Below are positions 6,443 to 43,625 of a stretch of DNA of 64,000 nt, in pieces. A program made the position numbers and the translations under genes. Below the pieces are notes generated by a model. That model saw only the letters and a list, made by a program, of their open reading frames with translations, had not been told where the DNA came from and did not search any database. Positions within the stretch are counted from its first letter, which is position 1. The number at the start of each line of letters is the position of its first letter. The DNA lies in assembly GCF_964355755.1 (NCBI RefSeq), contig NC_092679.1, forward strand, positions 9,777,332 to 9,841,331, written 5' to 3'. This DNA is from Antedon mediterranea. Lineage: Eukaryota > Animalia > Echinodermata.

Positions 6443-6586
6443 GCATATAACTACATAACGCTGTGGTGTGTGTCACACATTGTGGCTTCTTAATTAAACA
6501 AATTAATTAACAAAAAAAGCACGAAAGACGAAAGACGCTGTATACAGACGTATACAGTTATTTCACAATAAAGTAAAAGAAACCCG

Positions 6587-9661: not shown

Positions 9662-9733
9662 AGGTTTCGCCAGGGCTCGAACCGGGACCTTCTGCGTGTT
9701 AAGCAGACTTGACAACCACTACACTACGAAACC
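9662..9733 (-). tRNA. tRNA-Val(AAC) type A, HOR copy 2
   Basis: Same as 6089-6160, offset +3573. Confidence 0.8.
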
Positions 9734-9942
9734 TCTTACATTAAAATTGTGGGTTACAGAAAGTTTTTTAATCCATTTAAATTACAAATAAATGGTAATA
9801 AGCACAAAGCAAAATAAACATGTGTAAAAGTGATAATTACCGATTACACAAAATAAGTATTTAAAAAAATAATAATAAGATATACTGTGTATAATTATCA
9901 TATTGCGTATACAGTACTTTTCACCATAAAGTTTAAAAAAAA

Positions 9943-10517
9943 AGGTTTAGCCCGGGCTCGAACCAGGTACCTTCTGCGTATTGAGCAAACGTGATAACCA
10001 CTACGCCAAGAAGCCGCATATAACTACATAACGCTGTGGTGTGTGTCACACATTGTGGCTTCTTAATTAAACAAATTAATTAACAAAAAAAGCACGAAAG
10101 ACGAAAGACGCTGTATACAGACGTATACAGTTATTTCACAATAAAGTAAAAGAAACCCGAGGTTTCGCCAGGGCTCGAACCGGGACCTTCTGCGTGTTAA
10201 GCAGACTTGACAACCACTACACTACGAAAACCACTTACACTAAAAATGTGGGTTACAGAAAGTTTTTTAATCCATTTAAATTACAAATAAATATGGTAAT
10301 AAGCACAAAGAAAAATAAACATGTGTAAAAGTGATAATTACCGATTACACAAAATAAGTATTTAAAAAAATAATAAAAATAATATATACTGTGTATAATT
10401 ATCATATTGCGTATAGAGTACTTTTCACCATAACGTTTAAAAAAAAGTTTCGTCCGGGCTCGAACCAGGTACCTTCTGCGTGTTAAGCAAACGTGATAAC
10501 CACTACGCCAAGAATCC
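9943..10517 (-). pseudogene. Three tRNA-Val-derived pseudogenes of HOR copy 2 (9943-10015, 10160-10232, 10445-10517)
   Basis: Same as copy 1, offset +3573. Confidence 0.75.
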
Positions 10518-13234
10518 GCATATAACCATATAACTATATAACGCTGTGGTGTGTGTCACACATTGTGGATTCTTAATTAAACAAATTAATTAACAAAAAA
10601 TTAAAAATCCGGCTCTATAGCTTTGAGGACATGTCCCTCAAAATATCTCACTTTCAAAAACAATATTTATTTTCAATTAAAAAAAAAAGAAAAAATATAC
10701 CCGTATAGGTTCGAACCCACTACTGAGAGCACTCAAACCTGAGCATTATCCGTTACGCCACAAACCAGTAGATGACTGAGGAGCTGATAATAGTCTATTT
10801 ATATGAAATGAATGATCAATCAATGAAAAATAATGTCATGCAAGTTTGTTTCTGATTAAAAAAAAGGTCCACTTGGTTAGGCTTGACATTTAAAACCATA
10901 AAAATATCTCACTTTCAAAAACAATATTTATTTTCAAACAAAAAAAAAAGAAAAAAATATTCCTAGAGGTTCGAACCCACTACTGAGAGAACTCAAACCT
11001 GAGCATTACCGGTTACGGCGCAAGCCAGTAGATGAGGGAAGAGCTGATAATAGTCTATTTATATGAAATGAATGATCCATCAATGTAAAATGATGTTATG
11101 CAACTTTGTTTCTGATTTTGAAAAAGGTCCACTTGGTTAGGCTTGAAATTTAAAACCATAAAAATATCTCACTTTCAAAAACAATATTTATTTTCAAATA
11201 AAAAAATATGAAAAAAAGTATCCCTAGAAGTTCGAACCCACTATTAAAATCACTCAAACCTGAGCATTACCCGTTACGCCGCAAACCAGTATATGACTGA
11301 AGAGCTGATAATAGTCTATTTATATGAAATGAATGATCCATCAATGTAAAATGATGTTATGCAACTTTGTTTCTGATTTAAAAAACGGTCCACTTGGTTA
11401 GGCTTGACATTTAAAACCATAAAAATATCTCACTTTCAAAAACAATAATTATTTAAAAAAAAAAAAAAAAAGAAAAAAATATTCCTAGAGGTTCGAACCC
11501 ACTACTGAGAGAACTCAAACCTGAGCATTACCGGTTACGGCGCAAGCCAGTAGATGAGTGAAGAGCTGATAATAGTCTATTTATATGAAATGAATGATCC
11601 ATCAATGTAAAATGATGTTATGCAACTTTGTTTCTGATTTTAAAAAAGGTCCACTCGGTTAGGCTTGACATTTAAAACCATAAAAATATCTCACTTTCAA
11701 AAACAATATTTATTTTCAATTAAAAAAAAAAGAAAAAAAATACCCGTATAGGTTCGAACCCACTACTGAGAGCAATCAAACCTGAGCATTATCCGTTACG
11801 CAACAAACCAGTAGATGACTGAGGAGCTGATAATAGTCTATTTATATGAAATGAATGATCAATCAATGAAAAATAATGCCATGCAACTTTGTTTCTGATT
11901 GAAAAAAAGATCCACTTGGTTAGGCTTGACATTTAAAACCATAAAAATATCTCACTTTTAAAAACAATATTTATTTTCAAATAAAAAAAAAAGACAAAAA
12001 ATATCCCTAGAACCAGTATATGACTGAAGAGCTGATAATAGTCTATTTATATGAAATGGATCATCAATCAATGAAAAATAATGCCATGCAACTTTGTTTC
12101 TGATTTTAAAAAAGGTTCACTTGTTTAGGCCTGACAGTTGCAACCCTCAAAATATCTCACTTTCAAAAACCATATTTATTTTCAATTTAAAAAAAAATGA
12201 AAAAAATAACCCTAGAGGTTCGACCCACTACTCAGAGCACTCAAACCTGAGCATTACCCGTTACGCCACAAACCAGTAGATAACTGAAGAGCTGATAATA
12301 GTCTATTTATATGAAATTAATGATCAATCAATTAAAAATAATGCCATGCAACTTTGTTTCTGATTTTAAAAAAAGGTTCATTTGTTTAGGCCTGACATTT
12401 ACAACCCTCAAAATATCTAACTTTAAAAAAAAATATTTATTTTCAATTAAAAAAAAAAATAAAAGAAATATCCCTAGAGGTTCGAACCCACTACTGCAAG
12501 CACTCAAACTTGAGCATTACCCGTTACGCCTCAAACCAGTAGATGACTGAAGAGCTGATAATAGTCTATTTATATGAAATAAATAATAAATCAATGAAAA
12601 ATAATGCCATGCAACTTTGTTTCTGATTTTAAAAAAGGTTCATTTGTTTAGACCTGACATTTACAACCCTCAAAATATCTCACTTTCAAAAAAAATATTT
12701 ATTTTCAATTTAAAAAAAAAAGAAAAGAAGTATCCCCAGAGGTTCGAACCCACTACTGCGAGCACTCAAACTTGAGCATTACCGGTTACGCCTCAAACCA
12801 GTAGATGACTGAAGAGCTGATAATACTCTATTTATATGAAATAAATAATAAATCAATGAAAAATAATGCCATGCAACTTTGTTTCTGATTTTAATAAAGG
12901 TCCACTTGTTTAGGGCTGATATTTACAATCCTCAAAATAGCTCACTTTCAAAAACAATATTTATTTTCAATTAAAAAAAAAGAAAAAAAATACCCGTATA
13001 GGTTCGAACCCACTACTGAGAGCCCTCAAACCTGAGCATTATCCGTTACGCCACAAACCAGTAGATGACTGAGGAGCTGATAATAGTCTATTTATATGAA
13101 ATGAATGATCAATCAATGAAAAATAATGCCATGCAACTTTGTTTCTGATTTAAACAAGCACGAATGTGCAATACTCGGGGTACAGCAAAAGAAGCTGTAT
13201 ACAGACGTATACAGTTAGAAAGTTAAAGCAAAAT

Positions 13235-13306
13235 AGGTTTCGCCAGGGCTCGAACCGGGACCTTCTGCGTGTTAAGCAGACTTGACAACCACTACACTAC
13301 GAAACC
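13235..13306 (-). tRNA. tRNA-Val(AAC) type A, HOR copy 3
   Basis: Same as 6089-6160, offset +7146. Confidence 0.8.
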
Positions 13307-13515
13307 TCTTACATTAAAATTGTGGGTTACAGAAAGTTTTTTAATCCATTTAAATTACAAATAAATGGTAATAAGCACAAAGCAAAATAAACATGTGTAA
13401 AAGTGATAATTACCGATTACACAAAATAAGTATTTAAAAAAATAATAATAAGATATACTGTGTATAATTATCATATTGCGTATACAGTACTTTTCACCAT
13501 AAAGTTTAAAAAAAA

Positions 13516-14090
13516 AGGTTTAGCCCGGGCTCGAACCAGGTACCTTCTGCGTATTGAGCAAACGTGATAACCACTACGCCAAGAAGCCGCATATAACTAC
13601 ATAACGCTGTGGTGTGTGTCACACATTGTGGCTTCTTAATTAAACAAATTAATTAACAAAAAAAGCACGAAAGACGAAAGACGCTGTATACAGACGTATA
13701 CAGTTATTTCACAATAAAGTAAAAGAAACCCGAGGTTTCGCCAGGGCTCGAACCGGGACCTTCTGCGTGTTAAGCAGACTTGACAACCACTACACTACGA
13801 AAACCACTTACACTAAAAATGTGGGTTACAGAAAGTTTTTTAATCCATTTAAATTACAAATAAATATGGTAATAAGCACAAAGAAAAATAAACATGTGTA
13901 AAAGTGATAATTACCGATTACACAAAATAAGTATTTAAAAAAATAATAAAAATAATATATACTGTGTATAATTATCATATTGCGTATAGAGTACTTTTCA
14001 CCATAACGTTTAAAAAAAAGTTTCGTCCGGGCTCGAACCAGGTACCTTCTGCGTGTTAAGCAAACGTGATAACCACTACGCCAAGAATCC
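13516..14090 (-). pseudogene. Three tRNA-Val-derived pseudogenes of HOR copy 3 (13516-13588, 13733-13805, 14018-14090)
   Basis: Same as copy 1, offset +7146. Confidence 0.75.
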
Positions 14091-17000
14091 GCATATAACC
14101 ATATAACTATATAACGCTGTGGTGTGTGTCACACATTGTGGATTCTTAATTAAACAAATTAATTAACAAAAAATTAAAAATCCGGCTCTATAGCTTTGAG
14201 GACATGTCCCTCAAAATATCTCACTTTCAAAAACAATATTTATTTTCAATTAAAAAAAAAAGAAAAAATATACCCGTATAGGTTCGAACCCACTACTGAG
14301 AGCACTCAAACCTGAGCATTATCCGTTACGCCACAAACCAGTAGATGACTGAGGAGCTGATAATAGTCTATTTATATGAAATGAATGATCAATCAATGAA
14401 AAATAATGTCATGCAAGTTTGTTTCTGATTAAAAAAAAGGTCCACTTGGTTAGGCTTGACATTTAAAACCATAAAAATATCTCACTTTCAAAAACAATAT
14501 TTATTTTCAAACAAAAAAAAAAGAAAAAAATATTCCTAGAGGTTCGAACCCACTACTGAGAGAACTCAAACCTGAGCATTACCGGTTACGGCGCAAGCCA
14601 GTAGATGAGGGAAGAGCTGATAATAGTCTATTTATATGAAATGAATGATCCATCAATGTAAAATGATGTTATGCAACTTTGTTTCTGATTTTGAAAAAGG
14701 TCCACTTGGTTAGGCTTGAAATTTAAAACCATAAAAATATCTCACTTTCAAAAACAATATTTATTTTCAAATAAAAAAATATGAAAAAAAGTATCCCTAG
14801 AAGTTCGAACCCACTATTAAAATCACTCAAACCTGAGCATTACCCGTTACGCCGCAAACCAGTATATGACTGAAGAGCTGATAATAGTCTATTTATATGA
14901 AATGAATGATCCATCAATGTAAAATGATGTTATGCAACTTTGTTTCTGATTTAAAAAACGGTCCACTTGGTTAGGCTTGACATTTAAAACCATAAAAATA
15001 TCTCACTTTCAAAAACAATAATTATTTAAAAAAAAAAAAAAAAAGAAAAAAATATTCCTAGAGGTTCGAACCCACTACTGAGAGAACTCAAACCTGAGCA
15101 TTACCGGTTACGGCGCAAGCCAGTAGATGAGTGAAGAGCTGATAATAGTCTATTTATATGAAATGAATGATCCATCAATGTAAAATGATGTTATGCAACT
15201 TTGTTTCTGATTTTAAAAAAGGTCCACTCGGTTAGGCTTGACATTTAAAACCATAAAAATATCTCACTTTCAAAAACAATATTTATTTTCAAATAAAAAA
15301 ATATGAAAAAAAAGAACCCTAGAAGTTCGAACCCACTATTAAAATCACTCAAACCTGAGCATTACCCGTTACGCCACAAACCAGTAGATAAGTGAAGAGC
15401 TGATAATAGTCTATTTATATGAAATTAATGAACAATCAATGAAAAATAATGCCATGCAACTTTGTTTCTGATTTTAAAAAAAGGTTCATTTGTTTAGGCC
15501 TGACATTTACAACCCTCAAAATATCTCACTTTAAAAAAAAATATTTATTTTCAATTAAAAAAAAAATAAAAGAAAATCCCTAGAGGTTCGAACCCACTAC
15601 TGCAAGCACTCAAACTTGAGCATTACCCGTTACACCTCAAACCAGTAGATAACTGAAGAGCTGATAATAGTCTATTTATATGAAATGAATAATAAATCAA
15701 TGAAAAATAATGCCATGCAACTTTTTTTCTGATTTTAAAAAAGGTTCATTTGTTTAGGCCTGACATTTACAATCCTCAAAATATCTCACTTTAAAAAACA
15801 ATATTTATTTTCAATTAAAAAAAAAAGAAAAAATATACCCGTATAGGTTCGAACCCACTACTGAGAGCACTCAAACCTGAACATTATCCGTTACGCCACA
15901 AACCAGTAGATGACTGAGTAGCTGATAATAGTCTATTTATATGAAATGAATGATCAATCAATGAAAAATAATGCCATGCAACTTTGTTTCTGATTTAAAA
16001 AAAGGTCCACTTGGTTAGGCTTGACATTTAAAACCATAAAAATATCTCACTTTCAAAAACAATATTTATTGTCAAATAAAAAAAAAAGACAAAAAATATT
16101 CGTAGAGGTTCGAACCCACTACTGCGAGAACTCAAACCTAAGCACTACCGGTTACGCCACAAACCAGTAGATGAGAGAAGAGCTAATAATAGTCTATTAT
16201 ATGAAATGAATGATCCATCAATGTAAAATGATGTTATGCAACTTTGTTTCTCATTTAAAAAAAGGTCCACTTGGTTAGGCTTGACATTTAAAACCATAAA
16301 AATATCTCACTTTCAAAAACAATATTTATTTTCAAACAAAAAAAAAAGAAAAAAATATTCCTAGAGGTTCGAACCCACTACTGAGAGAACTCAAACCTGA
16401 GCATTACCGGTTACGGCGCAAGCCAGTAGATGAGTGAAGAGCTGATAATAGTCTATTTATATGAAATGAATGATCCATCAATGTAAAATGATGTTATGCA
16501 ACTTTGTTTCTGATTTTAAAAAAGGTCCACTTGGTCAGGCTTGACATTGAAAACCATACAAATATCTCACTTTCAAAAACAATATTTATTTTCAAATAAA
16601 AAAATATGAAAAAAAGTATCCCTAGAAGTTCGAACCCACTATTAAAATCACTCAAACCTGAGCATTACCCATTACGCCGCAAACCAGTATATGACTGAAG
16701 AGCTGATAATAGTGTATTTATATGAAATGAATGATCCATCAATGTAAAATGATGTTATGCAACTTTGTTTCTGATTTAAAAAACGGTCCACTTGGTTAGG
16801 CTTGACATTTAAAACCATAAAAATATCTCACTTTCAAAAACAATATTTATTTTCACAAAAAAAAAAAAGAAAAAAATATTCCTAGAGGTTCGAACCCACT
16901 ACTGAGAGAACTCAAACCTGAGCATTACCGGTTACGGCGCAAGCCAGTAGATGAGTGAAGAGCTGATAATAGTCTATTTATATGAAATGAATGATCCATC

Positions 17001-20000
17001 AATGTAAAATGATGTTATGCAACTTTGTTTCTGATTTTAAAAAAGGTCCACTCGGTTAGGCTTGACATTTAAAACCATAAAAATATCTCACTTTCAAAAA
17101 CAATATTTATTTTCAAATAAAAAAATATGAAAAAAAAGAACCCTAGAAGTTCGAACCCACTATTAAAATCACTCAAACCTGACCATTACCCGTTACGCCA
17201 CAAACCAGTAGATAAGTGAAGAGCTGATAAAAGTCTATTTATATGAAATTAATGATCAATCAATGAAAAATATGCCATGCAACTTTGTTTCTGATTTTAA
17301 AAAAAGGTTCATTTGTTTAGGTCTGACATTTACAACCCTCAAAATATCTCACTTTAAAAAAAAATATTTATTTTCAATTAAAAAAAAAATAAAAGAAAAT
17401 TCCTAGAGGTTCGAACCCACTACTGCAAGCACTCAAACTTGAGCATTACCCGTTACACCTCAAACCAGTAGATAACTGAAGAGCTGATAATAGTCTATTT
17501 ATATGAAATGAATAATAAATCAATGAAAAATAATGCCATGCAACTTTTTTTCTGATTTTAAAAAAGGTTCATTTGTTTAGGCCTGACATTTACAATCCTC
17601 AAAATATCTCACTTTCAAAAACAATATTTATTTTCAATTAAAAAAAAAAGAAAAAATATACCCGTATAGGTTCGAACCCACTACTGAGAGCACTCAAACC
17701 TGAACATTATCCGTTACGCCACAAACCAGTAGATGACTGAGTAGCTGATAATAGTCTATTTATATGAAATGAATGATCAATCAATTTAAAATGATGTTAT
17801 GCAACTTTGTTTCTGATTTAAAAAAAGGTCCACTTGGTTAGGCTTGACATTTAAAACCATAAAAATATCTCACTTTCAAAAACAATATTTATTTTCAAAC
17901 AAAAAAAAAAGAAAAAAATATTCCTAGAGGTTTGAACCCACTACTGAGAGAACTCAAACCTGAGCATTACCGGTTACGGCGCAAGCCAGTAGATGAGTGA
18001 AGAGCTGATAATAGTCTATTTATATGAAATGAATGATCCATCAATGTAAAATGATGTTATGCAACTTTGTTTCTGATTTTAAAAAAGGTCCACTTGGTTA
18101 GGCTTGACATTTAAAACCATAAAAATATCTCACTTTCAAAAACAATATTTATTTTCAAATAAAAAAATATGAAAAAAAGTATCCCTAGAAGTTCGAACCC
18201 ACTATTAAAATCACTCAAACCTGAGCATTACCCGTTACGCCGCAAACCAGTATATGACTGAAGAGCTGATAATAGTCTATTTATATGAAATGGATGATCA
18301 ATCAATGAAAAATAATGCCATGCAACTTTGTTTCTGATTTCAAAAAAGGTTCACTTGTTTAGGCCTGACAGTTGCAACCCTCAAAATATCTCACTTTCAA
18401 AAACAATATTTATATTCAATTAAAAAAAAAAAGAAAAAAAATACCCGTATATGGTTCGAACCCACTACTGAGAGCACTCAAACCTGAGCATTACCCGTTA
18501 CGCCTCAAACCAGTAGATGACTGAATTAAATTGCTGATAATACTCTATTTATATGAAATGAATAATAAATCAATGAAAAATAATGCCATGCAACTTTTTT
18601 TTCTGATTTTAAAAAAAGGTTCACTTGTTTAGGCCTGACATTTACAACCCTCAAAATATCTCATTTCAAAAACAATATTTATTTTAAATTAAAAAAAAAT
18701 AAAAGAAACAAAATATCCGTAGAGGTTCGAACCCACTAGTGAGAGCACTCAAACTTGAGCATTACCCGTTACGCCACAAACCAGTAGATGACTGAAGAGC
18801 TGATAATACTCTATTTATATGAAATAAATAATAAATCAATGAAAAATAATGCCATGCAACTTTGTTTCTGATTTTAAAAAAGGTCCACTTGTTTAGGCCT
18901 GATATTTGCAACCCTCAAAATATCTCACTTTCAAAAACAATATTTATTTTCAATTTAAAAAAAAAAAATCTCTAGAGGTTCGAACCCACTACTGAGAGCA
19001 TTCAAACCTGAGCATTATCCGTTACGCCACAAACCAGTAGATGACTGAGGAGCTGATAATAGTCTATTTTGATGGAATGAATGATCAATCAATGAAAAAT
19101 AATGCCATGCAACTTTGTTTCTGATTTTAAAAAAGGTCCACTTGTTTAGGCCTGACATTTACAACACTCAAAATATCTCACTTTCAAAAACAATATTTAT
19201 TTTCAATTAAAAAAAAAGAAAGAAAAAAAATATTCGTGGAGGTTCGAACCCACTACTGCGAGAACTCAAACCTAAGCACTACCGGTTACGCCACAAACCA
19301 GTAGATGAGTGAAGAGCTGATAATAGTCTATTTATATGAAATGAATGATCCATCAATGTAAAATGATGTTATGCAACTTTGTTTCTGATTTAAAAAAAGG
19401 TCCACTTGGTTAGGCTTGACATTTAAAACCATAAAAATATCTCACTTTCAAAAACAATATTTATTTTCAAACAAAAAAAAAGAAAAAAATATTCCTAGAG
19501 GTTCGAACCCACTACTGAGAGAACTCAAACCTGAGCATTACCGGTTACGGCGCAAGCCAGTAGATGAGTGAAGAGCTGATAATAGTCTATTTATATGAAA
19601 TGAATGATCCATCAATGTAAAATGATGTTATGCAACTTTGTTTCTGATTTTAAAAAAGGTCCACTCGGTTAGGCTTGACATTTAAAACCATAAAAATATC
19701 TCACTTTCAAAAACAATATTTATTTTCAAATAAAAAAATATGAAAAAAAAAACCCTAGAAGTTCGAACCCACTATTAAAATCACTCAAACCTGAGCATTA
19801 CCCGTTACGCCACAAACCAGTAGATGACCGAAAAGCTGATAATACTCTATTTATATGAAATAAATAATAAATCAATGAAAAATAATGCCATGCAACTTTG
19901 TTTCTGATTTTAAAAAAAGGTTCATTTGTTTAGGCCTGACATTTACAACCCTCAAAATATCTCACTTTCAAAAACAATATTTATTTTCAGTTAAAAAAAA

Positions 20001-21586
20001 AAGAAAAAAAAATACCCGTATAGGTTCGAACCCACTACTGAGAGCACACAAACCTGAGTTTTACCCGTTACGCCACAAACCAGTAGATGACTGAGGAGCT
20101 GATAATAATCTATATATATATATGAAATGAATGATCAATCAATTAAAAATAATGCCATGAAACTTTGTTTCTGATTTTAAAAAAGGTCCACTTGTTTAGA
20201 CCTGACATTTACAACCCTCAAAATATCTCACTTTCAAAAACCATATTTATTTTCAATTTAAAAAAAAAAGAAAAAAAATATACCTAGAGGTTCGCCCCAC
20301 TACGCAGAGCACTCAAACCTGAGCATTACCCGTTACGCCACAAACCAGTAGATGACTGAAGAGCTCATAATAGTCTATTTATATGAAATGAATGATCAAT
20401 CAATGAAAAATAATGCCATGCAACTTTGTTTCTGATTTTTAAAAAGATCCATTTGTTTAGGCCTGACATTCACAACCCTCAAAATATCTCATTTTCAAAA
20501 AAAATATTTATTTACAATAAGAAAAAAAAAGCAATATCCCTAGAGGTTGGAACCCGCTACTGAGAGCACTCAAACCTGGGTATTACCCGTTACGCCACAA
20601 ACCAGTAGATAACTGAAAAGTTGATAATAGTCTATTTATATGAAATTAATGATCAATCAATGAAAAATAATGCCATGCAATTTTTTTTCTGATTTTTAAA
20701 AAGGTACATTTGTTTAGGCCTGACATTTACAACCCTCAAAATATCTCACTTTCAAAAAAAATATTTATTTTCAATTAAAAAAAAAAAGAAAAGAAATATC
20801 CCTAGAGGTTCGAAGCCACTACTGCAAGCACTCAAACTTGAGCATTACCCGTTACGCCTCAAACCAGTAGATTACTGAAGAGCTGATAATACTCTATTTA
20901 TATGAAATGAATAATAAATCAATGAAAAATAATGCCATGCAACTTTGTTTCTGATTTTAAAAAAGGTTCACTTGTTTAGGCCTGACATTTACAACCCTCA
21001 AAATATCTCACTTTCAAAAACAATATTTATTTTCAATTAAAAAAAAAAAGAAACAAAATATCCGTAGAGGTTTGATCCCACTAGTGAGAGCACTCAAACT
21101 TGAGCATTATCCGTTACGCCACAAACCAGTAGATGACTAAGAGCTGATAATAGTCTCTTTATATGAAATGAATGATCAATCAATGAAAAACAATGCTATG
21201 CAACTTTATTTCTGATTTTAAAAAAAGGTCCACTTGGTTAGGCATGACATTTACAACCATAAAATATATCTTTAAAAAACAATATTTATTTTCAATAAAA
21301 AAAAAGAAAACAATTTCCCGTAGAGGTTTGAACCCACTAGTGAGAGCACTCAAACCTGAGCATTACTCGTTACGCCACAAACCAGTAGATGACTGAAGAG
21401 CTGATAATAATCTATTTATATGAAATGAATGATCAATCATTGAAAAATAATGCCATGCAACTTTGTTTCTGATTTTAAAAAAGGTTCACTTGTTGAGGCC
21501 TGACATTTACAACCCTTATTTATAAGTGTATTACGTAATTCATCATTACGTCATAAATATCATATTAACCTTGTTAAAACCAAAAT

Positions 21587-24141: not shown

Positions 24142-24325
24142 CTAAATCACTTGGATCTAGCAATGGGTTCTTTCCTTTTATATGAGTTCCTTGTTTATCA
24201 CTATGAGTTCAACACCAAATAAAAGTCCAAATATTTTCAAATAATAACAACAATTAAGAGATATCTTTCAAGTAGCGTACTGGTTGCGCTTCATTGTTCC
24301 TAGATTGCATTAACCAGATTTCTTC
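24142..24325. repeat. ~190-bp unique segment abutting the CT-rich satellite, copy 1
   Basis: Homologous to 31192-31393 (17-bp indel and several substitutions); the junction TTC|GATCTAT is the same in both. Confidence 0.9.
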
Positions 24326-24991
24326 GATCTATCTCTCTCTCGCTGATCTATCTCTATCTCTCTCTCGCTGATCTATCTCTCTCTCGCTGACCTATCTCTC
24401 TCTCGCTGATCTATCTCTTTCTCGCTGATCTATCTCTCTCTTGCTGATCTATCTCTCTCCCTCTCTCGCTGAACTATCTCTCTCTCGCTGAATTATCTCT
24501 CTCTCGCTGATCTATCTCTCTTTCTCTCGCTGATCTATCTCTCTCTCTCGCTGATCTATCTCTCTCTCGCTGATCTATCTCTCTCTCGCTAATCTATCTC
24601 TCTCTCACTGATCTATTTCTCTCTCGCTGATCTATCTCTCTCTCGCTGATCTATCTCTCTCTCGCTCATCTATCTCTCTCGCTGACCTATCTCTCTCTCG
24701 CTGATCTATCTCTCTCTCGCTGATCTATCTCTCTCTCGCTGATCTATCTCTCTCTCGCTGATCTATCTCTCTCTCGCTGATCTATCTCTCTCTCGCTGAT
24801 CTATCTCTCTCTCGCTGATCTATCTCTCTCGCTGATCTATCTCTCTCTCTCTCTCTCGCCGATCTCTCTCTCTCTCTCTCTCTCCCCCGCTGATCTATCT
24901 CTCTCGCTGATCTCTCTCTCTCTCTCGCTGATCTATCTCTCTCTCGCTGATCTATCTCTCTCGCTGATCTATCTCTCTCTCGCTGATCTAT
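24326..24991. repeat. ~20-bp satellite GCTGATCTA(TC)n, array 1
   Basis: Tandem monomers with variable TC tract length. Confidence 0.97.
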
Positions 24992-25146
24992 AATAATAAT
25001 AATAATAACAGGGTTTTTATAGCGCACATACCACTCAAGAGTGCTCAAGGCGCATTCAAAAAAAAAAATTAAAACAAATCATACAAATGCCTGACAAATA
25101 AAATGCAATTTCTTTGGAGGGTCCCCATCCGTTCTCGTTCTGTCGC

Positions 25147-26092
25147 GGTCCCGGACGCGATTTTTTTTTCGTACATAAGTTGGGGACCCCCTCATGAAAC
25201 GTCACAAAATAAACATGAATAATTCATCAGTTAAATTTTCTTGTTCCGTGTGCACCCAAGCGTATAGCAACAAGAAGTGATTACACAAGTGCGGTACGAT
25301 TCTAGGCCTCCTATCTCCGCTGTTGTTGCGGCGTGCGATTTCATAGAAGAATAGCCGCGTTTTGTGTGGATTGTCGAAATAATTAGCCTTTAGTTTATGG
25401 TGCTTTTAATATAATTTATTACTAACGAATTACGTGTTAAAATTATAGTTTCTATTAATACTATTAGGCCTAATTATTAGTCTCTAAACCCATGTCTATT
25501 TTAGTAGTAGCTGTGTGGGTGTGTTTGACGTGTGTGTGTTAGGTATGACCAAAGATAGTTACACTATCTTTGGTATGACACAATCCGAGTAATAAGTCCG
25601 CAAAATTAAAAAATAAACATTACACAAAAATACATTTTTTATTCTCGTGGGTCAAATCTTCCCATCTCATGTGTACGCGCATTTTTAAAGTTCCTTTGAG
25701 TACATGCATATTGTTTGATAATAAAATAGCAGAATTAAAAAAATACAGTACACAAATTATACACATTTTTTATTCTTGTGGGTCTAAGCTTTCTTTGGGC
25801 AATGTCCAATGAATTACTACTTAGTTTAATGTCTTGCCTAGCTGTCGATTAGCCTCGACTCGACACATTTTGTGTGAAGAAGAGTGCGCGAAGGCAATCA
25901 CGTGAATTGACTTACAATCCTAGGCCTACTGTAGAAAGTATCGTATCGCAGTTGTGTAATCACTTCTTGTTGCTATACGCTTGGGTGCACACGGAACAAC
26001 AAATTTAACTGATGAATTATTCATGTTTATTTTGTGACGTTTCATGAGGGGTCTCCAACTTATGTACGAAAAAAAAAATCGCGTCCCGGACC
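25147..26092. mobile_element. MITE / non-autonomous DNA transposon with ~155-bp terminal inverted repeats, inside the LINE 3' UTR
   Basis: 25147-~25300 is the reverse complement of ~25940-26092 (e.g. CGTACATAAGTTGG/CCAACTTATGTACG, GTGTGCACCCAAGCGTATAGC/GCTATACGCTTGGGTGCACAC). No ORF; TSD unclear. Confidence 0.88.
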
Positions 26093-26220
26093 CCTACCTA
26101 GATGACCAAACCAAGGAACAGGATACACATTTGCCTTGCCACAGACGACCGGGTGCTCAGAGAACAACCAAGATAAGATAATGCTGGTCAGGAAAAAGTA
26201 TACTATAAAATTCTAGAACT

Positions 26221-29090
26221 TTAAGAAACCTCATGATTTCCATATGCCTTAATGAATAAATGTGTTTTTAATATTTTTTTAAAAGTATAAAAAGTTTTGC
26301 AAAATCTGATAGAGCTCGGTATTGCATTCCATAGACGAGGAGCAGTAACGGTGAAAGATCTGTCTCCCCATGAGTGGTGAGACTTAGGTTGATGTAGAAG
26401 CAGCGTATCACTAGAACGCAGATTCCGTCTGGGAACATACAGCCTAAGCATGTCAGAAATATATTCAGGAGCCATGCCATTAATAGACTTAAAAACATAG
26501 AGTAATAATTTAAAAACAATGCGGTACCTAACAGGAAGCCAATGCAAAGTTTCCAAGGTATTTGATATGTGTGCATATCTTGGTAGTTTTTAACAACTCG
26601 TGCCGCTGTATTTTGAATCAGCTGAAGCCTGTGGAGTTGTTTTTGTGGGAGACCAAATAACAAGGAGTTACACATATCGAGACGCAAACTAACAAATGCA
26701 TGTACAAGTTGCTCAGCAGCTGCACGATTTAAGTATTTTCTGATGCCTTGAATATTTCTTAAATGATATGACGATGCAGACGTAATTTTAGAAATTATGA
26801 GCCGTCATTGTCATATTAGAATCCAGAATTACACCAAGATTTGTAACTTGTGTAGTATTTTTAGTACAAAAGTTACCAATGGAAACCCTCTTAGATGGAA
26901 TTTTCTCTAATTGTTGTTGCGAACCAAATAGAATGCACTCAGTCTTATCATCATTACGTTTCAAAAAGTTTTTGGCCATCCAGACACGAATTTCAGAGAT
27001 ACATTTTTCAAGCAAATCAATTGATAATTCACTCTTTGTCATGGTAGGTTTAAACGATATATATATCTGAGTGTCATCAGCGTAAACATGATAACTAAGA
27101 TTATATTTCTTAATGATATCACGAATAGGATATACATAAATTGTAAACAATTGTGGACCTAACACAGATCCTTGCTGAACAGAGTAATTTAAAGTGTTAG
27201 GTTGAGAGATTTCCTCTCTAATACAAATGTGTTGAGGTCTGTCCTCCAAGTATGATTGACACCATCTTAGTGCACATCCCTGAACACCAATAGAAGCATG
27301 CAACCTCTCAGTCAGAATACTATGATCTACCGTATCAAACGCAGCACTCAAATCAAGTAAAATTAAAGCAGTTACTTTTTCAACATCCATCGCACGAAGT
27401 ATATCATTGCTAACGCGCAGGAGTGCAGTTTCAGTACTGTGATGTGCTTTATACGCTGATTGAAACGGGTCAAGTAAAGAATTATCCTTTACATGTGATA
27501 GTATACGTTTAGATACCACTTTTTCAATTACTTTTCCAAGAAAACACAGATTTGATACTGGTCTGTAATTGGATAGCTTTTCAGGATCAAGACCCGATTT
27601 CTTTAATTGAGGACGTATGTGCGAGATTTTACAAATATCTGGGAAAACCCCAGTTTCCAAAGACAGGTTAACGACACGTGTAATTAGTGGAACAAAAACA
27701 ACAGCATTTCGCTTAATTAACAGAGTAGGAACTGGATCAAGACTGCAAGATTTAGCAGGCGAGTTTTTGACAATTTCAGAAATTTCTTTTTTCACTTGCA
27801 GGTTCAAATATACAAAGGGAGGCACAATTATAATTTTCACAGCATACGTCGTTATTAAAGTAATGAGACAAACTTCCAGCACTATCTTTAACAAGAAGTT
27901 TACGAATATTAACAATTTTATTTTTTTTAAATACGGAAAATCTTTCTGCAAGCAACTCATCTGAGTGAGAAAATGGAAGCACCGACGGTTTAGAACAGTG
28001 TAAAAGATTATTTACAACTTTAAACAGCTTCTTCTGATCACCTGAGCAATCTTCGACCAGATCAGAATAATATTGTTTCTTAGCACTTTCAACAAGCATA
28101 TTAACAATACACCGCTGATGACAATATTTCTGTCTATCTAATGTATTTTTTTATTTCATCCATTTTCTCTCAAATACGCGACGGAGTTTTCTCGCAGATC
28201 TAATTTCATCAGTATACCACGGTTTTGAAGAATTTAGTTTGATACATTTTATTTTTAAAGGTGCGTGTTTATCCATAACTTCTCTTAAAGAGCAGTATCT
28301 TTCAATATTTTCTTGCAAAGTACCATCATGCATAACAGACAACCGAGCTTGTATGTCATATGAAAATATTGTTGTATCAATACTGTTTATATTTGTGGAT
28401 TTTAATTTTAGATTTAGGAAGAGGTGGTTTCTTGAAGTCGAGACTACAAAGTATAGAAAAATGATCAGAGATACCCGGTTTTACAGTGATCCCCGAGATC
28501 AGAGAAACATCTCTAGTAATAATGAGATCAAGACAATGACCACCATCATGCGTAGGTTCATTTACATGCTGTATAAGATTGAAAGACTGCAATAGACGAT
28601 TACATTTATTTGCAGCGATATTCTCATTTTCATCAATGTGGATATTAAAATCACCACAAAAAATTACTTCTGATGGAATAATGAGATAATCAAAAATCAT
28701 ATTTTCAAATTCATTAAGAAAGTCGGTGACAGACAAACTCGGTGATCTATAGATGCATACAATATAAATTGTTTTTGAACTTAATGTAAACTGTTAATGT
28801 ATTGATTCAAATGAAGAATAAACATTTACATCATTTTTCATATTAACACTTAGACTAGATTTAAATAAAATTCCAATCCCTCCACCGATTTTATCCAATC
28901 TAGGGACATGTTTAAAACAATATCCAAGTGGAGTTATGTTTCTAATGGAGAGGTTGTCATCAGGTGGAAGCCATGTTTCAGACACAGACACGATATCAAT
29001 GTCATTACTAACAACAAAGTCTGTGAATTCATCACTTTTGTTACGCAATGAACGAGCATTTAGCAAACAAAATATAAGTGACGAATTTGG
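26221..29090 (-). pseudogene. Disrupted LINE ORF2 (APE endonuclease + reverse transcriptase)
   Basis: LLNARSLRNK, VSETWL, GGGIG, CGDFNIH, HCLDLII, ISDHF, KPWYT, KSCSLDPVPT, NYRPVSNL, LLDLSAAFDTVDH, QGSVLGP, VYADDTQ, LHWLPVRYRIVFK. Multiple stops and frameshifts. Confidence 0.95.
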
Positions 29091-29289
29091 AGAATTTGAA
29101 TTTAATTTGTGTAGGTAGGTTTTTGTGGATTTAGCAGCTCTCGTACAAGTTCCAGGTACTTGAACCACTCTTTTCTTTCTTTTCTTGCATCGATTTTTAT
29201 AGTCCCTTGTTGATGATTGACGCATTCTCTCTGACGAATTGGTTGGTACTGATTTGAGAGCAGAAAAAAATGACGGAGGTGGACTCATC

Positions 29290-30967
29290 GCCGATTCACT
29301 ACTTATGTGATCAATAATGTTCTTCGCCAAGATGAACTCCATCAGAAGATAGTTTCATGAATGGAATATTTGTATTATCAGTAAATCCCCAGCCATTCTC
29401 TTTGCATATGAGTTTCATATGGTGATTTGCTCTCTCTACATCATCGCATTTCGAGACTGTCTGGTTGAATTGCGTCGGTGTATGATGGAGGAAACTATGC
29501 ACTTTATTGGCTTCAAGGTTTCACACAGAGATGTCGTTTTTGAGGTCAAAGTGTCTGAACTGTCATTTCTATTGTTAGTTCCCACATGAACAATCACTCT
29601 TTCAACACCATGTTTTACTGCAAGACGCTTGGCACAATGCACGAGGTCTTCTATTTTTGCACCACGCATAGTGTGGCATATCACTTTTTTTTCAGTAGAA
29701 TTATTTAATCGTTTGGGACGAAGATGTTTAATCATTGAATCGCCAATAATCAGAGCGTCAGCTGGAATTGTGTAATCTGGAGTACTAGCAGTTTTATCAG
29801 CAATTTGTTGTGTGTCGCTTAGTGCTTTATGTTTATTACGGTATTTATGAAGCTGTAGTTGATAAGAATCAACTTTTCCAGTACTCTTCGTTACATCATT
29901 AGTAGGGCTAGTCGTGTCCAATGCGTTATATAGAGTGTCAATTAGCTGCTCAGAATAAGTCCGAGAATCATCGATAACTTTGCTGTCACAATTTGGTTCT
30001 ACATTAGACCGATTTTGTTTCGGGAGGTCCAATGAGGTCAGATGTATAGACTGTTCTTGAGGAGAGGAACATCTATCGTGCAGACCAAGTTGGGGACAGG
30101 TTTTATGTTGAGTAACACTATGCCCCTTCACAGTAATAAAGTCAGATGTGTCAATAGCAACTTGGGTTATTTTTGCATCGTATGCTTCATCTTTGGCTTT
30201 AGCAGCATCTTTATGAACTGAGATAAGTAGATCGTGTAGTTTTGTCACTTCCTTATCTTTTTGCTGCAACAGTTGTAAAGTATGCTGCAAATGTGTTACA
30301 TCGGACTTAAGAGCTTTGAATTTAATATTTATATTATGTTTGAATTTTCTATTTTCTTGTAGGGATTTAACCTCTTTTTGAAATTCATTAAGCTCACGTC
30401 GAATATCTTTTAGAGCTTCAAACAAAATAGCACAATCATTGTTTTTAGCTAGTAATTTATCTTTCAGGACTCTATTCTCATTTTCAGACATTTTAATTTT
30501 AAGTTCGAAGTTTTCTTTTAGCAAATCAGATAGATTTGGAGAAGCTAATGAGTGATCAAAATGTGATTGAGTGCAAGCGGAATGGATGTTTTGGAGGTCA
30601 TTTACATAAGTGGTTACCAGGTCATGTATTATGTATCATTACATTCAGTATCTATTTTGTTACTCTCAATAGCTGTATTTACTAAAGGTAGTTCCACTTC
30701 AGCATCAATGACTTTAGTTGCATCAGTACATTCTAAGTCATTGCACACCCCATTTTCGCTGAGATATTTTTCGGCTTTTTCAACACTAAAAAATGATTGG
30801 AATAAAGCTCCGTGATAGCCATCAGTGTTTGCTTGGCATTCCAGCCAGGATAAATATATACCTGGTTGTTTCCCGACAGCAACAGCATAAACCTTTTTCT
30901 TTTTAGTTTTCTTAGATTTAATTAGTTTTTCAGCCATTTCTATGTGTTGCATTGTTGCATTAGCCAT
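29290..30967 (-). pseudogene. Disrupted LINE ORF1: RNase H1 hybrid-binding-like domain + coiled coil + SGNH/GDSL esterase
   Basis: From ATG 30967: YAVAVGKQPGIYLSWLEC...FQSFFSVEKAEKYL; after a frameshift at ~30632, a heptad-rich coil; then IIGDSMI, RGAKI, VHVGTNN; after a second frameshift, SSDGVHL. Confidence 0.85.
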
Positions 30968-31191
30968 CTCGCTATGCAGTGGTATTTGTACGATTTCAAT
31001 GGACAAAAGAAGACAATAGAAAGTACTGTTGCCTAGCACAACGACGCCTCGCACTGATTGGCCGATTAGAAGGCAGACAAGACGCGGTACGATCGTTTCA
31101 GGTCCCAGCAATGAAAAGGGCCAAACTAACCCTGTATAGATCGTATGGTACAACTTTTTTTTTCCTATCCGTGGGCCTAGGCGTTGAAGGT

Positions 31192-31393
31192 CTAAATCAC
31201 TTGGATCTAGCAATAGGTTCTGTAATAAAAAGTGTACTTTCCTTTTATATGAGTTCTTTGTTTATCAATATGAGTTCAACACCAAATAAAAGTCCAAATA
31301 ATTGTAAAATAATAACAACAATTAAGAGATATCTTTCAAGTAGCGTACTGGTTGCGCTTCATTGTTCCTAGATTGCATTAACCAAATTTCTTC
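31192..31393. repeat. ~200-bp unique segment abutting the CT-rich satellite, copy 2 (possibly the LINE 5' end)
   Basis: Homologous to 24142-24325. Confidence 0.9.
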
Positions 31394-32032
31394 GATCTAT
31401 CTCTCTCTCGCTGATTTATCTCTCTCTCGCTGATCTATCTTTCTCTCGCTGATCTATCTCTCTCTCGCTGATCTATCTCTCTCTCTCGCTGATCTATCTC
31501 TCTCTCGCTGATCTATCTCTCTCTCGCTGATCTATCTCTCTCTCTCTCTCACTGATCTATCTCTCTCTCTCGCTGATCTATCTCTCTCTCTCTCTCGCTG
31601 ATCTATCTCTCTCTCTCTCGCTGATCTATCTCTCTCTCGCTGATCTATCTCTCTCTCGCTGATCTATCTCTCTCTCGCTGATCTATCTCTCTGGCCGATC
31701 TATCTCTCTCTCTCTCTCGCTGATCTATCTCTCTCTCGCTGATCTATCTCTCTCTCGCCGATCTATCTCTCTCTCGCTGATCTATCTCTCTCTCTCTCTC
31801 TCTCTCTCGCTGATCTATCTCTCTCTCTCGCTGATCTATCTCTCTCTATCGCTGATCTATCTCTCTCTCGCTGATCTATCTCTCTCTCGCTGATCTATCT
31901 GTCTCTCACTGATCTATCTCTCTCTCTCGCTGATCTATTTCTCTCTCGCTGATCTATCTCTCTCTCTCTCGCTGATCTATATCTCTCTCGCTGATCTATC
32001 TCTCTCTCGCTGATCTATCTCTCTCTCTCGCT

Positions 32033-38165: not shown

Positions 38166-39663
38166 TCTATCTCTCTCTCTCTCGCTGATCTATCTCTCTC
38201 TCTCGCTGATCTATCTATCTTTCTCTCTCGCTGATCTATCTCTTTCTCGCTGATCTATCTCTCTCTCTCGCTGATCTATCTCTCTCTCGCTGATCTATCT
38301 CTTTCGCTAATCTATCTCGCTCTCGCTGATCTATCTCTCTCTCTCTCTCGCTGATCTATCTCTCTCTTGCTGATCTATCTCTCTCTCTCTCGCTGATCTA
38401 TCTATCTCTCTCTCGCTGATCTATCTATCTCTCTCTCGCTGATCTATCTCTCTTGCTGATCTATCTCTCTCTCGCTGATCTATCTCTCTCGCTGATCTAT
38501 CTCTCTCTCGCTGATCTATCTCTCTCTTGCTAATCTATCTCTCTCTCGCTGATCTATCTCTCTCTCGCTGATCTATCTCTCTCTCTCTGATCTATCTCTC
38601 TCTCTCTCGCTGATCTATCTCTCTCTCGCTAATCTATCTCTCTCTCGCTGATCTATCTCTCTCTCACTGATCTATCTCTCTCTCGCTGATCTTTCTCTCT
38701 CTCGCTGATCTATCTCTCTCTCGCTGATCTATCTCTCTCTCGCTGATTTATATCTCTCTCGCTGATCTATCTCTCTCTCGCTGATCTATATCTCTCTCGC
38801 TGATCTATCTCTCCCTCTCGCTGATCTATCTCTCTCTCGCTGATCTATCTCTCTCGCTGATCTATCTCTCTCTCGCTGGTCTATCTCTCTCTCGCTGATC
38901 TATCTCTCTCTCGCTGATCTATCTCTCTCTCGCTGATCTATCTCTCCCTCTCGCTGATCTATCTCTCTCTCGCTGATCTATCTCTCTCTCGCTGATCTAT
39001 CTCTCCCTCTCGCTGATCTATCTCTCTCTCGCTGATCTATTTCTCTCTTGCTGATCTATCTCTCTCTCGCTGATCTATATCTCTCTCGCTGATCTATCTC
39101 TCCCTCTCGCTGATCTATCTCTCTCTCGCTGATCTATCTCTCTCTCGCTGATCTATCTCTCTCTCTCTCTCTCGCTGATCTATCTCTCTCTCTCTCTCTC
39201 TCGCTGATCTATCTCTCTCGCTTATCTATCTATCTCTCTCGCTGATCTATCTCTTTCTCGCTGATCTATCTCTCTCTCTCTCTCTCGCTGATCTATCTCT
39301 CTCTCGCTGATCTATCTCTCTCTCGCTAATCTATCTCGCTCTCGCTGATCTATCTCTCTCTCTCGCTGATCTATCTCTCTCTTGCTGATCTATCTCTCTC
39401 TCTCGCTTATCTATCTATCTCTCGCTGATCTATCTCTCTCTCGCTGATCTATATCTCTCTCGCTGATCTATCTCTCTCTCGCTGATCTATCTATATCTCT
39501 CTCGCTGATCTATCTCTCTATCGCTGATCTATCTCTCTCGCTGATCTCTCTCTCTCTCGCTGATCTATCTCTCTCTCTCTGATCTATCTCTCTCTTGCTA
39601 ATCTATCTCTCTCTCGCTGATCTATCTATCTCTCGCTGATCTATCTCTCTATCTGATCTATCT
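31394..39663. repeat. ~20-bp satellite GCTGATCTA(TC)n, array 2 (includes a pure (TC)~34 tract at 32035-32102)
   Basis: Continuous tandem monomers. Confidence 0.98.
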
Positions 39664-41974
39664 CACACTCGATTCACCAGGGACAAAAAGTAGTGAGCCC
39701 TCTATCGGCAGCCAATCGTTTTTGCACACGAGACAGCGTGGACAATTACCCGGAAGCAACTTTGTTTTGAAAAGTAAATCTTAGGTTTTTGCAAATTGGC
39801 CAATTGGAACTTTTGGTTTTATTTACTAATGAATAATTCATGAAAACCTTTGACAAGGCATCTACGAACCACGTGATATTGTTTTTTAATCGACGAACCC
39901 ATTATATTTGTGTGAAACAAGGGTGAATTACACCGATGTTTTTTAAACAATTTTAGGCTATTCGAATGTTAAAATTTCGTCTAATTTGTTGAGGCTGTAA
40001 TAAAACAACGCAATTTTTTGAGAAGGTGGGTTTTATAGTTTCTGAATATTTGATTTTTCAATAGTAGTTAATAAAAAAATCTCGTTGGGGTTATTTTTTA
40101 TTTTTTTTTAATGGCTGCTTAAACATGTGCCTTCTTGGGTATTTCACTATTGAAAATGGAACACATGGTTGTAGCTAAAATCATTTTTTACGCCATAAGA
40201 TAAAAAATGTGGTTTTGTAAATTAATAAGGGCAACATATAATATATAGGAAAGCTGTTTTTAATCATAAAACTCTACAAAGCCTCTTTTTTTTATTTATA
40301 AATCAATATAGTCTAGGCCTAGTAGTACAGTAGGAGAGCCAGGCTTTAGCCTATAGTGGGGTAGTGCGTGCATTATTGGCGCGTGTTCATTGTCGGGCGC
40401 GCGTTGTTTATAGGCCTAAGAAAAAAAGTAAAATATACAAATATAATTAAATAATGATTATTATTAATTGAATGTTGTTTTTTTTTTACAGACCACAGAG
40501 GATTGTTCTACATACTTCAATACAAATAGCATTAAATCAACAACAATTTCTTATGAGTCATATTAATTGCTCTGGCATATAATGTGAAAAAGCACTATTA
40601 ATACTGTAATAATGGATATCTATAGATGTATTGCCAAAAAGACATTTTATTTTTTAAAAACTTTAACTTATCCTAATTTACTTATTTAAAGGTTCAAGTG
40701 GCGGTTGGTTGTTGTGCAGTAGTTTAATAAAGTTTAAATGTACATTTCAAATCGGCAAATAAATAATGGTAATAGGCCTACAGTACTACAGTAAAGAAAA
40801 TCTTTTCGAAGATTAGGCTTAGTACAAAAGATGTTAGCTAAGTTGATGTAGAAAACTTGTTGTCTGATTTTTAAGGTGAAATTTGTGATAATATTAAAAG
40901 TTAAAATGTTAATTGGTGTGTATTTGTATTTCATTTATTGCTCCATTATTATAATAAAAAGCAGGGAACCATGAAATTTCATTTTAGCTCCGATAAAAAG
41001 TAAACATTTTCAGCATATACTGTACTTAAATAAATCATATGTTAGTGACAGGTGACATTAACAGATTTATTATGAGATTACTAGTAAGCCTACTAGTAGG
41101 TTTAGCTCTATTCATAAAAATAATGACATTATATACTGTACATTAATTAATTAGCCTAGCTAGGCCTAACTAATTTACTGATTTTTCAGTATTTTACCAA
41201 GTCAACCGTTCAGGCATGCAGACAGTCCTCACTTCACACTAATCTTCATAATTTTAAGAAAATGAAAGTTCAGCACTTTATTTTAAAATTTATAAGCCCA
41301 TATTATAAGATTCTGCATCATCCACTTAACAAGAACTAAAATCGAGAGCCCAGTGATAGAGCGCATCTTCCGACGTTCTCGTCGCCTAAGGAAACGAGTA
41401 TTCCAGCCCTGCCGCGTCTTCCTAGGCCTACGCGCACCGCACTTTCGCTCAAAATACACTATCTTCAACTCCTTATAGAATTTGTTTGAAAACAACCCCA
41501 AGCTTATATTTGGAAATCTTTGAAAATGCATATAAGACTATATTATAGCGTTTTCAGAATTTCATTTAAAAATTGCAAATTAATGTTAGCTATTTTAAAA
41601 GATTAGTTAGTTTTCACTTTTTTGTTTTCGCCGTATGACTCACTTTGTTTACGTTTACATTTGGCTTAGACGTTTATCTTAGAATTCGAATCAATTAATC
41701 CATAATCAACTAAAATTGCTATTGTTGTGGTTTTTGTTAAATATAAATGTTCTTAATAAACAGAAATAAATCAAACAACAATATAATTTAATATAAATCC
41801 GTTAAAAGATAAATTTAGACAGCCTATAAAACACGGAAGTCAGAACTCGCGTCGCTCGAAAATGCTCGGGAACTTTCTATTTATAGCCAATCGAAAAAGG
41901 CTCCGGCTAACTTAAACAATGAAAACGGCTCTCGGAACACTTAATGTCCATTTTCGCTGTTTGACGTGGATGTG
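39664..41974. mobile_element. Non-autonomous DNA transposon with CAC...GTG termini and 4-bp TSD (Chapaev-like; Transib/RAG-like not excluded)
   Basis: ATCT at 39660-39663 and 41975-41978. An empty-site paralogue at ~45151-45190 matches the rejoined flanks exactly. Ends read CACACTC... and ...GGATGTG. Confidence 0.8.
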
Positions 41975-43625
41975 ATCTCTCTCTCTCTCGCTGATCTATC
42001 TCTCTCTCTCGCTGATCTATCTCTCTCTTGCTAATCTATCTCTCTCTCGCTGATCTATCTCTCTCGCTGATCTATCTCTCTCTCTCTCATCTATCTCTCT
42101 CTCTCTCGCTGATCTATCTCTCCCCCGCTAATCTATCTCTCTCTCGCTGATCTATCTCTCTCTCACTGATCTATCTCTCTCTCGCTGATCTTTCTCTCTC
42201 TCGCTGATCTATCTCTCTCTCTCGCTGATCTATCTCTCTCTCTCGCTGATCTATATCTCTCTCGCTGATCTATCTCTCTCGCTGATCTATCTCTCTGTCG
42301 CTGACCTATCTCTCTCTCGCTGATCTTTCTCTCTCTCGCTGATCTATCTCTCTCTCTCTCGCTGATCTATCTCTCTCTCTCGCTGATCTATCTCTCTCGC
42401 TGATCTATCTCTCTCTCGCTGATCTATCTCTCTCTCGCTGATCTATCTCTCTCTCGCTGATCTATCTCTCCCTCTCGCTGATCTATCTCTCTCTCGCTGA
42501 TCTATCTCTCTCTCGCTGATCTATCTCTCTCTCTCTCGCTGATCTATCTCTCTCTCTCTCTCTCTCTCGCTGATCTATCTCTCTCTCTCTCGCTGATCTA
42601 TCTCTCTCTCACTGATCTATCTATCTCTCTCGCTGATCTATCTCTTTCTCGCTGATCTATCTCTCTCTCTCGCTGATCTATCTCTCTCTCGCAGATCTAT
42701 CTCTCTCGCTAATCTATCTCGCTCTCGCTGATCTATCTCTCTCTCTCGCTGATCTATCTCTCTCTTGCTGATCTATCTCTCTCTCTCTCTCGCTGATCTA
42801 TCTATCTCTCTCTCGCTGATCTATTTCTCTCTCTCGCTAATCTATCTCTCTCTCGCTTATCTATCTCTCTCTCTCTCTCTCGCTGATCTATCTATCTCTC
42901 TCTCGCTGATCTATCTCTCTCTCTCGCTAATCTATCTCTCTCTCGCTTATCTATCTCTCTCTCTCTCTCTCTCTGATCTATCTCTCTCTCTCTCGCTGAT
43001 CTATCTCTCTCTTGCTAATCTATCTCTCTCTCGCTGATCTATCTCTCTCTCGCTGATCTATCTCTCTCTCTCTGATCTATCTCTCTCTCGCTGATCTATA
43101 TCTCTCTCGCTGATCTATCTCTCCCTCTCGCTGATCTATTTTCTCTCTCGCTGATCTATCTCTCTTTCTCTCTCTCGCTGATCTATCTCTCTCTCTCTCT
43201 CTCGCTGATCTATCTCTCTCTCGCTGATCTATCTATCTCTCTCGCTGATCTATCTCTTTCTCGCTGATCTATCTCTCTCTCTCTCGCTGATCTTTCTCTC
43301 TCTCGCTGATCTATCTCTCTCTCTCTCGCTGATCGATCTCTCTCTCTCGCTGATCTATATCTTTCTCGCTGATCTATCTCTCTCGCTGATCTATCTCTCT
43401 GTCGCTGACCTATCTCTCTCTCGCTGATCTTTCTCTCTCTCGCTGATCTATCTCTCTCTCTCGCTGATCTATCTCTCTCGCTGATCTATCTCTCTCTCGC
43501 TGATCTATCTCTCTCTCGCTGATCTATCTCTCTCTCGCTGATCTATCTCTCCCTCTCGCTGATCTATCTCTCTCTCGCTGATCTATCTCTCTCTCGCTGA
43601 TCTATCTCTCTCTCTCGCTGATCTA

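Follow-up and report, generated by a model that had tools for sequence, protein, structure and literature searches.

An RNase H1-type hybrid-binding domain at the start of an esterase-type ORF1 in a decayed crinoid LINE

The question raised by this locus is whether ORF1 of a LINE can begin with an RNase H1-type RNA/DNA hybrid-binding domain (HBD), as an original prediction made from the letters of the DNA had claimed, and what such a domain might do there. The window (the whole stretch of 64,000 nucleotides of Antedon mediterranea DNA that was analysed) contains on its minus strand, at 24991-31393, a full-length decayed LINE of the CR1 group, recognised by Pfam matches to endonuclease (EN) and reverse transcriptase (RT), by the satellite that ends at 24991 and resumes at 31394, and by an (ATT)n tail. 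The element is probably an L2, an assignment that rests on the esterase match given below and on two features taken to be of L2 type, namely an LHWLP motif near the end of ORF2 and the short-repeat tail. The 5' UTR (30968-31393, minus strand) is covered by the main contigs to about 31330-31350, and its last ~40 bases were assigned by the satellite edge. ORF1 starts at 30967 and its stop (29102-29104, minus strand) follows a C-terminal EW..YL..VR.LLNP motif common to homologues. ORF2 (26221-29230, minus strand; start not fixed) overlaps the end of ORF1 and encodes, in pieces, an APE endonuclease and a reverse transcriptase (Exo_endo_phos and RVT_1, the latter with E 3e-32). The 3' UTR carries a MITE-like insertion with 158-bp inverted ends (25147-26092), and the 3' end (24991-25060, minus strand) consists of a short stem-loop candidate, whose fold is no better than that of shuffles (z -0.63), and the (ATT)n tail.

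The LINE is flanked on both sides by arrays of a 19-bp GA-rich satellite (24326-24991 and 31394-64000) with strand skews near -0.6. A second LINE 5' end (24142-24332), 88.5% identical to 31192-31400, begins at the phase of the satellite at which the full copy also begins, and another repeat with a 20-bp minisatellite cuts it short; the common phase would fit either a target preference or a local duplication. A 2.3-kb AT-rich non-coding insert with CACA...TGTG-like ends, likely a non-autonomous DNA transposon, interrupts the satellite at ~39660-41975. Elsewhere in the window, an AT-rich tandem array of 261-bp units, which also repeats at a higher order of ~3.57 kb, occupies 3745-21516, and its unit contains a GGTTCGAACCC motif, which we take to resemble a tRNA B box. 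The plus strand at 452-3142 carries a second, unrelated decayed LINE ORF2 with endonuclease and RT motifs identified by eye, for which no ORF1 was found within the window.

The minus-strand frame at 30967-30629 encodes 112 aa, made up of a lysine patch, the HBD and an acidic linker, and its translation from the ATG at 30967 reads as originally described, with KSKKTKKKK followed by VYAVAVGKQPGIYLSWLECQANTDGYHGALFQSFFSVEKAEKYL. The lysine patch (aa 14-25, 8 Lys; 30893-30928, minus strand) directly precedes the HBD (aa 25-68; 30764-30895, minus strand), and P0071, an intact relative described below, has RKKK at the same place. The Pfam profile Cauli_VI (PF01693) covers residues 25-68 over all 44 of its positions with 63.1 bits and E 2.8e-17 (Pfam cut-off 21 bits), and no gaps are needed to align the stretch with yeast 1QHK (E 1.3e-8) or with human 3BSU (E 2.6e-5), as the predicted ungapped pattern had implied. 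An AlphaFold model built from an alignment of 29 sequences (three loci of an earlier list, one with a stop codon, were left out) reached a mean pLDDT of 86, had a three-stranded sheet and two helices, and gave the human HBD 3BSU as its best structural match (TM by target 0.91, rmsd 0.5 A). As the alignment was made from HBD homologues, this fold match is not independent of the sequence match; folded from the single sequence, the HBD gave a poor model (pLDDT 62). A chance match was rejected as the source of the similarity, and so was a fragment of a host RNase H1 gene; no RNase_H catalytic domain was found with Pfam downstream in the window frames or in P0071. Residues 25-68 are thereby confirmed as a full RNase H1-type HBD.

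Two details of the domain that had been predicted, the retention of the Tyr, Trp and Phe and the replacement of FKKF by FQSF, were both seen in the alignment. The kept residues are Tyr27, Trp41 and Phe56, of which Trp41 corresponds to W43 of the human binding surface; Y29 and F58 are likewise hybrid-binding surface residues in human RNase H1. The positions of human K59 and K60 are occupied by Gln57 and Ser58, and P0071 also has Gln-Ser there. Among 374 HBD stretches, the first lysine position holds Lys or Arg in 318 and Gln in 24, and Ser is common at the second (115 of the 374). Net charge over residues 25-69 is zero. A decay of FKKF limited to the window copy was rejected, the main contigs being unchanged at this place and P0071 sharing FQSF. 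Judged from sequence, the Gln-Ser pair would lower the probability that the domain binds like the human HBD and leaves its family membership untouched.

The HBD is separated in the window from the remainder of ORF1 by a frame break. The stop-to-stop frame with the coiled coil and the esterase (30635-29436, 399 aa) overlaps the stop of the HBD frame by 7 nt, and a single 1-nt frameshift had been proposed to join the two; the offset between the frames is as proposed, but the lesion, according to contigs, consists of two extra bases in the window copy (30629-30630, minus strand), which create the stop of the 5' piece. Five public runs from a single organism (X1-X5) contain the stretch, and the junction was examined in four of them (X2-X5), which come from two samples. 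Each of the four has contigs in which 30628 is followed immediately by 30631: gapped contigs show this in X2, X3 and X5, and a 13-base loose end shows it in X2, X3 and X4. Dropping bases 30629-30630 puts the HBD in the coiled-coil/esterase frame, so that in the other copies represented by these contigs the HBD and the coiled coil/esterase share one frame. Relative to the window, contigs are further short of 5 bases at 29465 and of 1 base at 29264, and a gain of ~23 bases near 29329 is deduced for one contig; the window esterase is correspondingly broken by 5 extra bases at 29465 and a ~23-base loss near 29329. Applied together, the four length differences (-2, -5, the deduced +23 and -1) bring the distance between 30967 and the stop at 29102 to 627 codons, or ~626 aa, pieced together from contigs that cannot phase one intact copy. 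The only contig spanning the HBD to the esterase (X5, 1128 nt) is in frame at the junction and, by its coordinates, is 1 nt short within the HBD and 11 bases longer further downstream; with these other frame-breaking differences, no single intact copy of the window LINE family was seen.

The insertion is not private to the window copy, being present also in contigs of X1, X2 and X3 and in at least two sequence variants, which may be copies or alleles; copies with the frame-splitting bases may have retrotransposed or may have been duplicated as DNA. Junction contig depth with and without the insertion was 75 versus 93 in X2 and 59 versus 72 in X3, so that roughly 40-50% of the depth, which is not equated with copy number, carries the insertion and split copies are not rare.

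Downstream of the junction, the 399-aa frame contains a heptad-like region and the first SGNH blocks, and the remaining esterase lies in other frames. The coiled-coil-like region (approximately 30138-30533, minus strand) is homologous to residues ~170-309 of P0071 and gave weak matches to coiled-coil families and, with a homologue profile, to coiled-coil chains. The SGNH esterase (29290-29762, minus strand) has its Ser, Asn and Asp-x-x-His blocks as GDS (29744-29736), GTNN (29582-29571) and DGVH (29343-29332). The window's own esterase fragment gave no Pfam GDSL match, and a profile of nine esterase homologues had the ZfL2-1 ORF1 esterase (4C1B) as its first match with E 4.6e-15. Together with a position upstream of an APE-RT ORF2, these blocks are those of an esterase-type (Type IV) ORF1, and the presence of a folded HBD makes the protein a variant of the esterase-type ORF1p as PMC3905857 describes it.

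An intact relative of this architecture was found in the same crinoid. P0071 (XP_071948969.1, Antedon mediterranea, 536 aa, annotated as uncharacterized) is one open frame with Cauli_VI at 7-50, a coiled-coil-like middle and an SGNH-type end. It matched the HBD query in a phmmer search of 1.84 billion representatives (56% identity, E 4.3e-17), was the only single-stretch match among the best 150 of 3426, and alone among those 150 also matched the esterase profile (residues 161-532, E 6.4e-12); its structure matches in the Atlas were GDSL clusters (TM by row 0.74-0.80). By its homology, P0071 would be a LINE ORF1 protein. The HBDs of the window and P0071 are identical at 30 of 42 positions (71%), against 25 for the next best and a median of 18 among 379 HBD stretches, and have rare residues in common, FQSF included. 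The coiled-coil half of the window protein matches P0071 alone (BLASTP, 31% over 166 aa), so the HBD is more conserved than its flank. The in-frame contigs and this intact protein support the original proposal of an ancestral ORF1p made up of HBD, coiled coil and SGNH esterase.

The esterase half has a different history. It matches other proteins at 58-66% and gave no BLASTP match to P0071 at E 0.01, and the SGNH motifs of P0071 (GNSH, HEITN and DGYH) belong to a lineage other than that of the window esterase. The esterase-side searches yielded 35 proteins, which have a different N-terminus where one is present; Cauli_VI was found in none of the 35 (33 scanned by Pfam and 2 by precomputed domains, many being N-terminally incomplete), so close relatives work without an HBD. 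That HBD plus coiled coil occurs with esterases of two separate lineages suggests that a module was swapped; to go by the sequences, HBD and coiled coil would move together and the shuffling point of ORF1 would lie between the coiled coil and the esterase.

Several wider searches bear on how far the architecture extends. By features, the best Atlas match of P0071 was a eukaryotic cluster whose 75 proteins, ~713 aa in length, all have Cauli_VI (score 0.91, 205/256 features); this cluster disappears when clusters with any GDSL, KH or FLYWCH member are skipped, so that at least one member likely carries a skipped family; the cluster is an indirect lead to a wider family and may include P0071's own kin. 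When longer proteins were sought through a word index queried with the HBD frame, 0/185 candidates had the architecture, and the same search also missed P0071. The best 150 of the 3426 representatives are ranked mostly by repeated HBDs, and 44 of the 150 were scanned with Pfam, so single-HBD fusions are under-sampled in that set; P0108, P0143, P0157, P0112, P0166 and P0182 have tandem Cauli_VI fused to PIF1 and UvrD helicases. None of 35 metagenome loci had esterase, EN or RT matches (the nine frames examined, one of them incomplete, resemble bacterial RNase HI), and none of 133 stretches in viral contigs had the architecture. P0032 combines a candidate SAMD1-type winged helix (E 3e-4, under the cut-off) with an ORF1-like esterase, one Atlas cluster combines NADAR, GDSL and zf-CCHC, and KH, FLYWCH and 2OG-Fe(II) clusters are look-alikes. 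Esterases of the ORF1 kind may thus carry accessory domains more often than one would gather from the 2013 survey, and the HBD is to that extent less surprising.

The reading that is preferred, and that is given an about even chance of being right, is that the HBD serves as the nucleic-acid grip of an HBD/coiled-coil/SGNH ORF1p. The domain would bind RNA-containing duplexes weakly, multimerisation through the coiled coil and the adjacent lysine patch would make this weak binding effective, and the stems of the element's own RNA would be its main target, held during RNP assembly; in retrotransposition the HBD would thereby take the role of the RRM or zinc-knuckle domains in other ORF1 types. 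The binding surface of human RNase H1 is formed by W43, K59 and K60; hybrid binding is lost altogether in W43A and drops about 10-fold in the K59 and K60 mutants (PMC6846478). With Tyr, Trp and Phe kept and FQSF in place of FKKF, weak multivalent duplex binding is likelier than tight hybrid binding. CaMV P6, which has the same motif, binds both hybrids and dsRNA in vitro (PMC5902531), and for ZfL2-1 ORF1p it is reported that the coiled coil dimerises and that the esterase binds lipids and not oligo-A RNA (PMC3905857). Counted against a weak grip are the lost K59/K60 equivalents, the zero charge of the HBD, the common split copies, the failure of the one HBD-to-esterase contig to show an intact copy, and the 35 esterase homologues lacking an HBD.

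The possibility that the HBD binds RNA:DNA hybrids in the nucleus, where it would coat the TPRT RNA:cDNA hybrid or steer the RNP to R-loops, for example in purine-skewed satellite, is viewed as doubtful. It draws on the retention of the three hybrid-binding surface residues, on the two related 5' ends that adjoin satellite at the same phase (31394 and 24333) and on the satellite's GC and AT skews near -0.6. However, the phosphate-binding lysines are lost, and since the K59 and K60 positions read Gln-Ser in both LINE-type HBDs, the roles originally proposed (binding of the TPRT hybrid, a shield against RNase H1, guidance to R-loops) are weakened. Moreover, loose ends at 31339 and 31348 show non-satellite 5' flanks in other copies, a local duplication could account for the second 5' piece, and satellite makes up much of the window, so that two matching 5' ends weigh little. 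Were the HBD to read hybrids, the TPRT intermediate or the choice of target would directly involve ORF1p. A bolder version, regarded as unlikely, would make HBD plus coiled coil a mobile ORF1 module of marine-invertebrate LINEs, present in dozens of proteins and exchanged between different esterases, that grips RNA:DNA hybrids, protects the RNA:cDNA intermediate and steers insertion to R-loop-prone DNA, of which the GA-rich satellite of the window would be an example; a dedicated hybrid reader would then be a first for an ORF1p.

By analogy with CaMV P6/TAV, which promotes reinitiation after long ORFs and whose binding of TOR, eL18 and eL13 is placed in its RNase H-like dsR motif (PMC5902531), the HBD could instead be a protein-binding surface that aids ribosome reinitiation on ORF2. 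A fold retained without its lysines would fit, as would a bicistronic LINE RNA in which ORF2 overlaps the end of ORF1, but this is an analogy, the other TAV domains are absent, and relatives without an HBD have the same ORF1 end, so it is thought improbable. A similarly small probability is given to the HBD being a captured passenger of little function, in a family whose ORF1 is dispensable and which spreads with a split frame too. The split form is indeed common in the contigs, ZfL2-1 ORF1p was not essential in HeLa assays (PMC3905857), and the 28 substitutions classified among those listed between copies (10 synonymous, 18 non-synonymous) give no clear signal; against this stand the 71% identity of the HBD to that of P0071, compared with 31% in the coiled coil, its retention with two unrelated esterase lineages, and the 75-protein cluster, all with Cauli_VI, that tops the feature matches of P0071. 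A last alternative, held to be highly improbable, would have the esterase protein begin at an internal ATG, the HBD frame being either unrelated neighbouring sequence or a short upstream ORF in its own right. Two overlapping frames do occur in the window and in some of the contigs, and the downstream frame has an in-frame ATG at residue 49, but contigs from two samples are in frame at the junction, and the single open frame of P0071 has homology to either side of it.

The reading of the HBD as a weak RNA grip bears on a gap in what is known of these proteins. According to PMC3905857 (2013), esterase ORF1ps in RepBase have no RRM or other structural RNA-binding domain, arginine-rich peptides are proposed for them, the combination of an esterase with an RNA-binding domain is suggested to be useless or exclusive, and the manner in which esterase-type ORF1ps bind RNA is left open by that ZfL2-1 ORF1p structure study. 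The window element and P0071 are counter-examples to esterase ORF1ps without a folded RNA binder, and the HBD likely supplies the folded grip reported as lacking. PMC4120745 lists ORF1 types, and its accessible text contains neither RNase H nor ribonuclease; that of PMC13343379 (2026) likewise mentions neither. Further background came from 10.1101/572842, PMC7102451 and PMC4176376. In agreement with the original statement that no such ORF1 was known, no description of an HBD-bearing ORF1 was found in the open literature, with RepBase, Dfam, InterPro, subscription papers and supplements (e.g. Table S1 of PMC3905857) outside the scope. The combination of HBD, coiled coil and SGNH esterase is concluded to be a real, conserved and apparently undescribed esterase-type ORF1 architecture; as far as could be tested, each of the three findings on which the original claim depended (a significant Cauli_VI match, the segment in other copies, no earlier description) has held.

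Among known systems, ZfL2-1 ORF1p (4C1B; PMC3905857 and PMC4120745) is alike in its linker, C-terminal SGNH esterase and downstream APE-RT ORF2 and has a coiled coil where the window protein is coiled-coil-like, whereas the window ORF1p starts with a folded RNase H1-type HBD. The HBD of RNase H1 (PF01693; 3BSU and 1QHK) is alike in the 44-residue match, the fold (rmsd 0.5 A) and the Tyr, Trp and Phe; in the window, however, no RNase H catalytic domain follows, and human R32, R33, R52, R57, K59 and K60 are replaced by A, V, G, L, Q and S in the alignment. P0071 shares the domain order, the FQSF HBD and a homologous coiled-coil-like region, and differs in its SGNH lineage. Cauli_VI is also reported in RNase LS toxins (PMC3710099). 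The dsR motif of CaMV P6/TAV belongs to the same Pfam family and is likewise employed by a reverse-transcribing element without being joined to an RNase H catalytic domain, but P6 is described as an inclusion-body and reinitiation protein of a plant pararetrovirus (PMC5902531), whereas the protein that begins with the window HBD is the ORF1p of an animal LINE, in which coiled coil and esterase follow. Finally, capE of Pleurotus Helitrons (PMC4289320) is another PF01693 domain carried by a eukaryotic transposon; capE is presented there as a separate gene captured in a DNA transposon, whereas the HBD of the window is part of a LINE ORF1.
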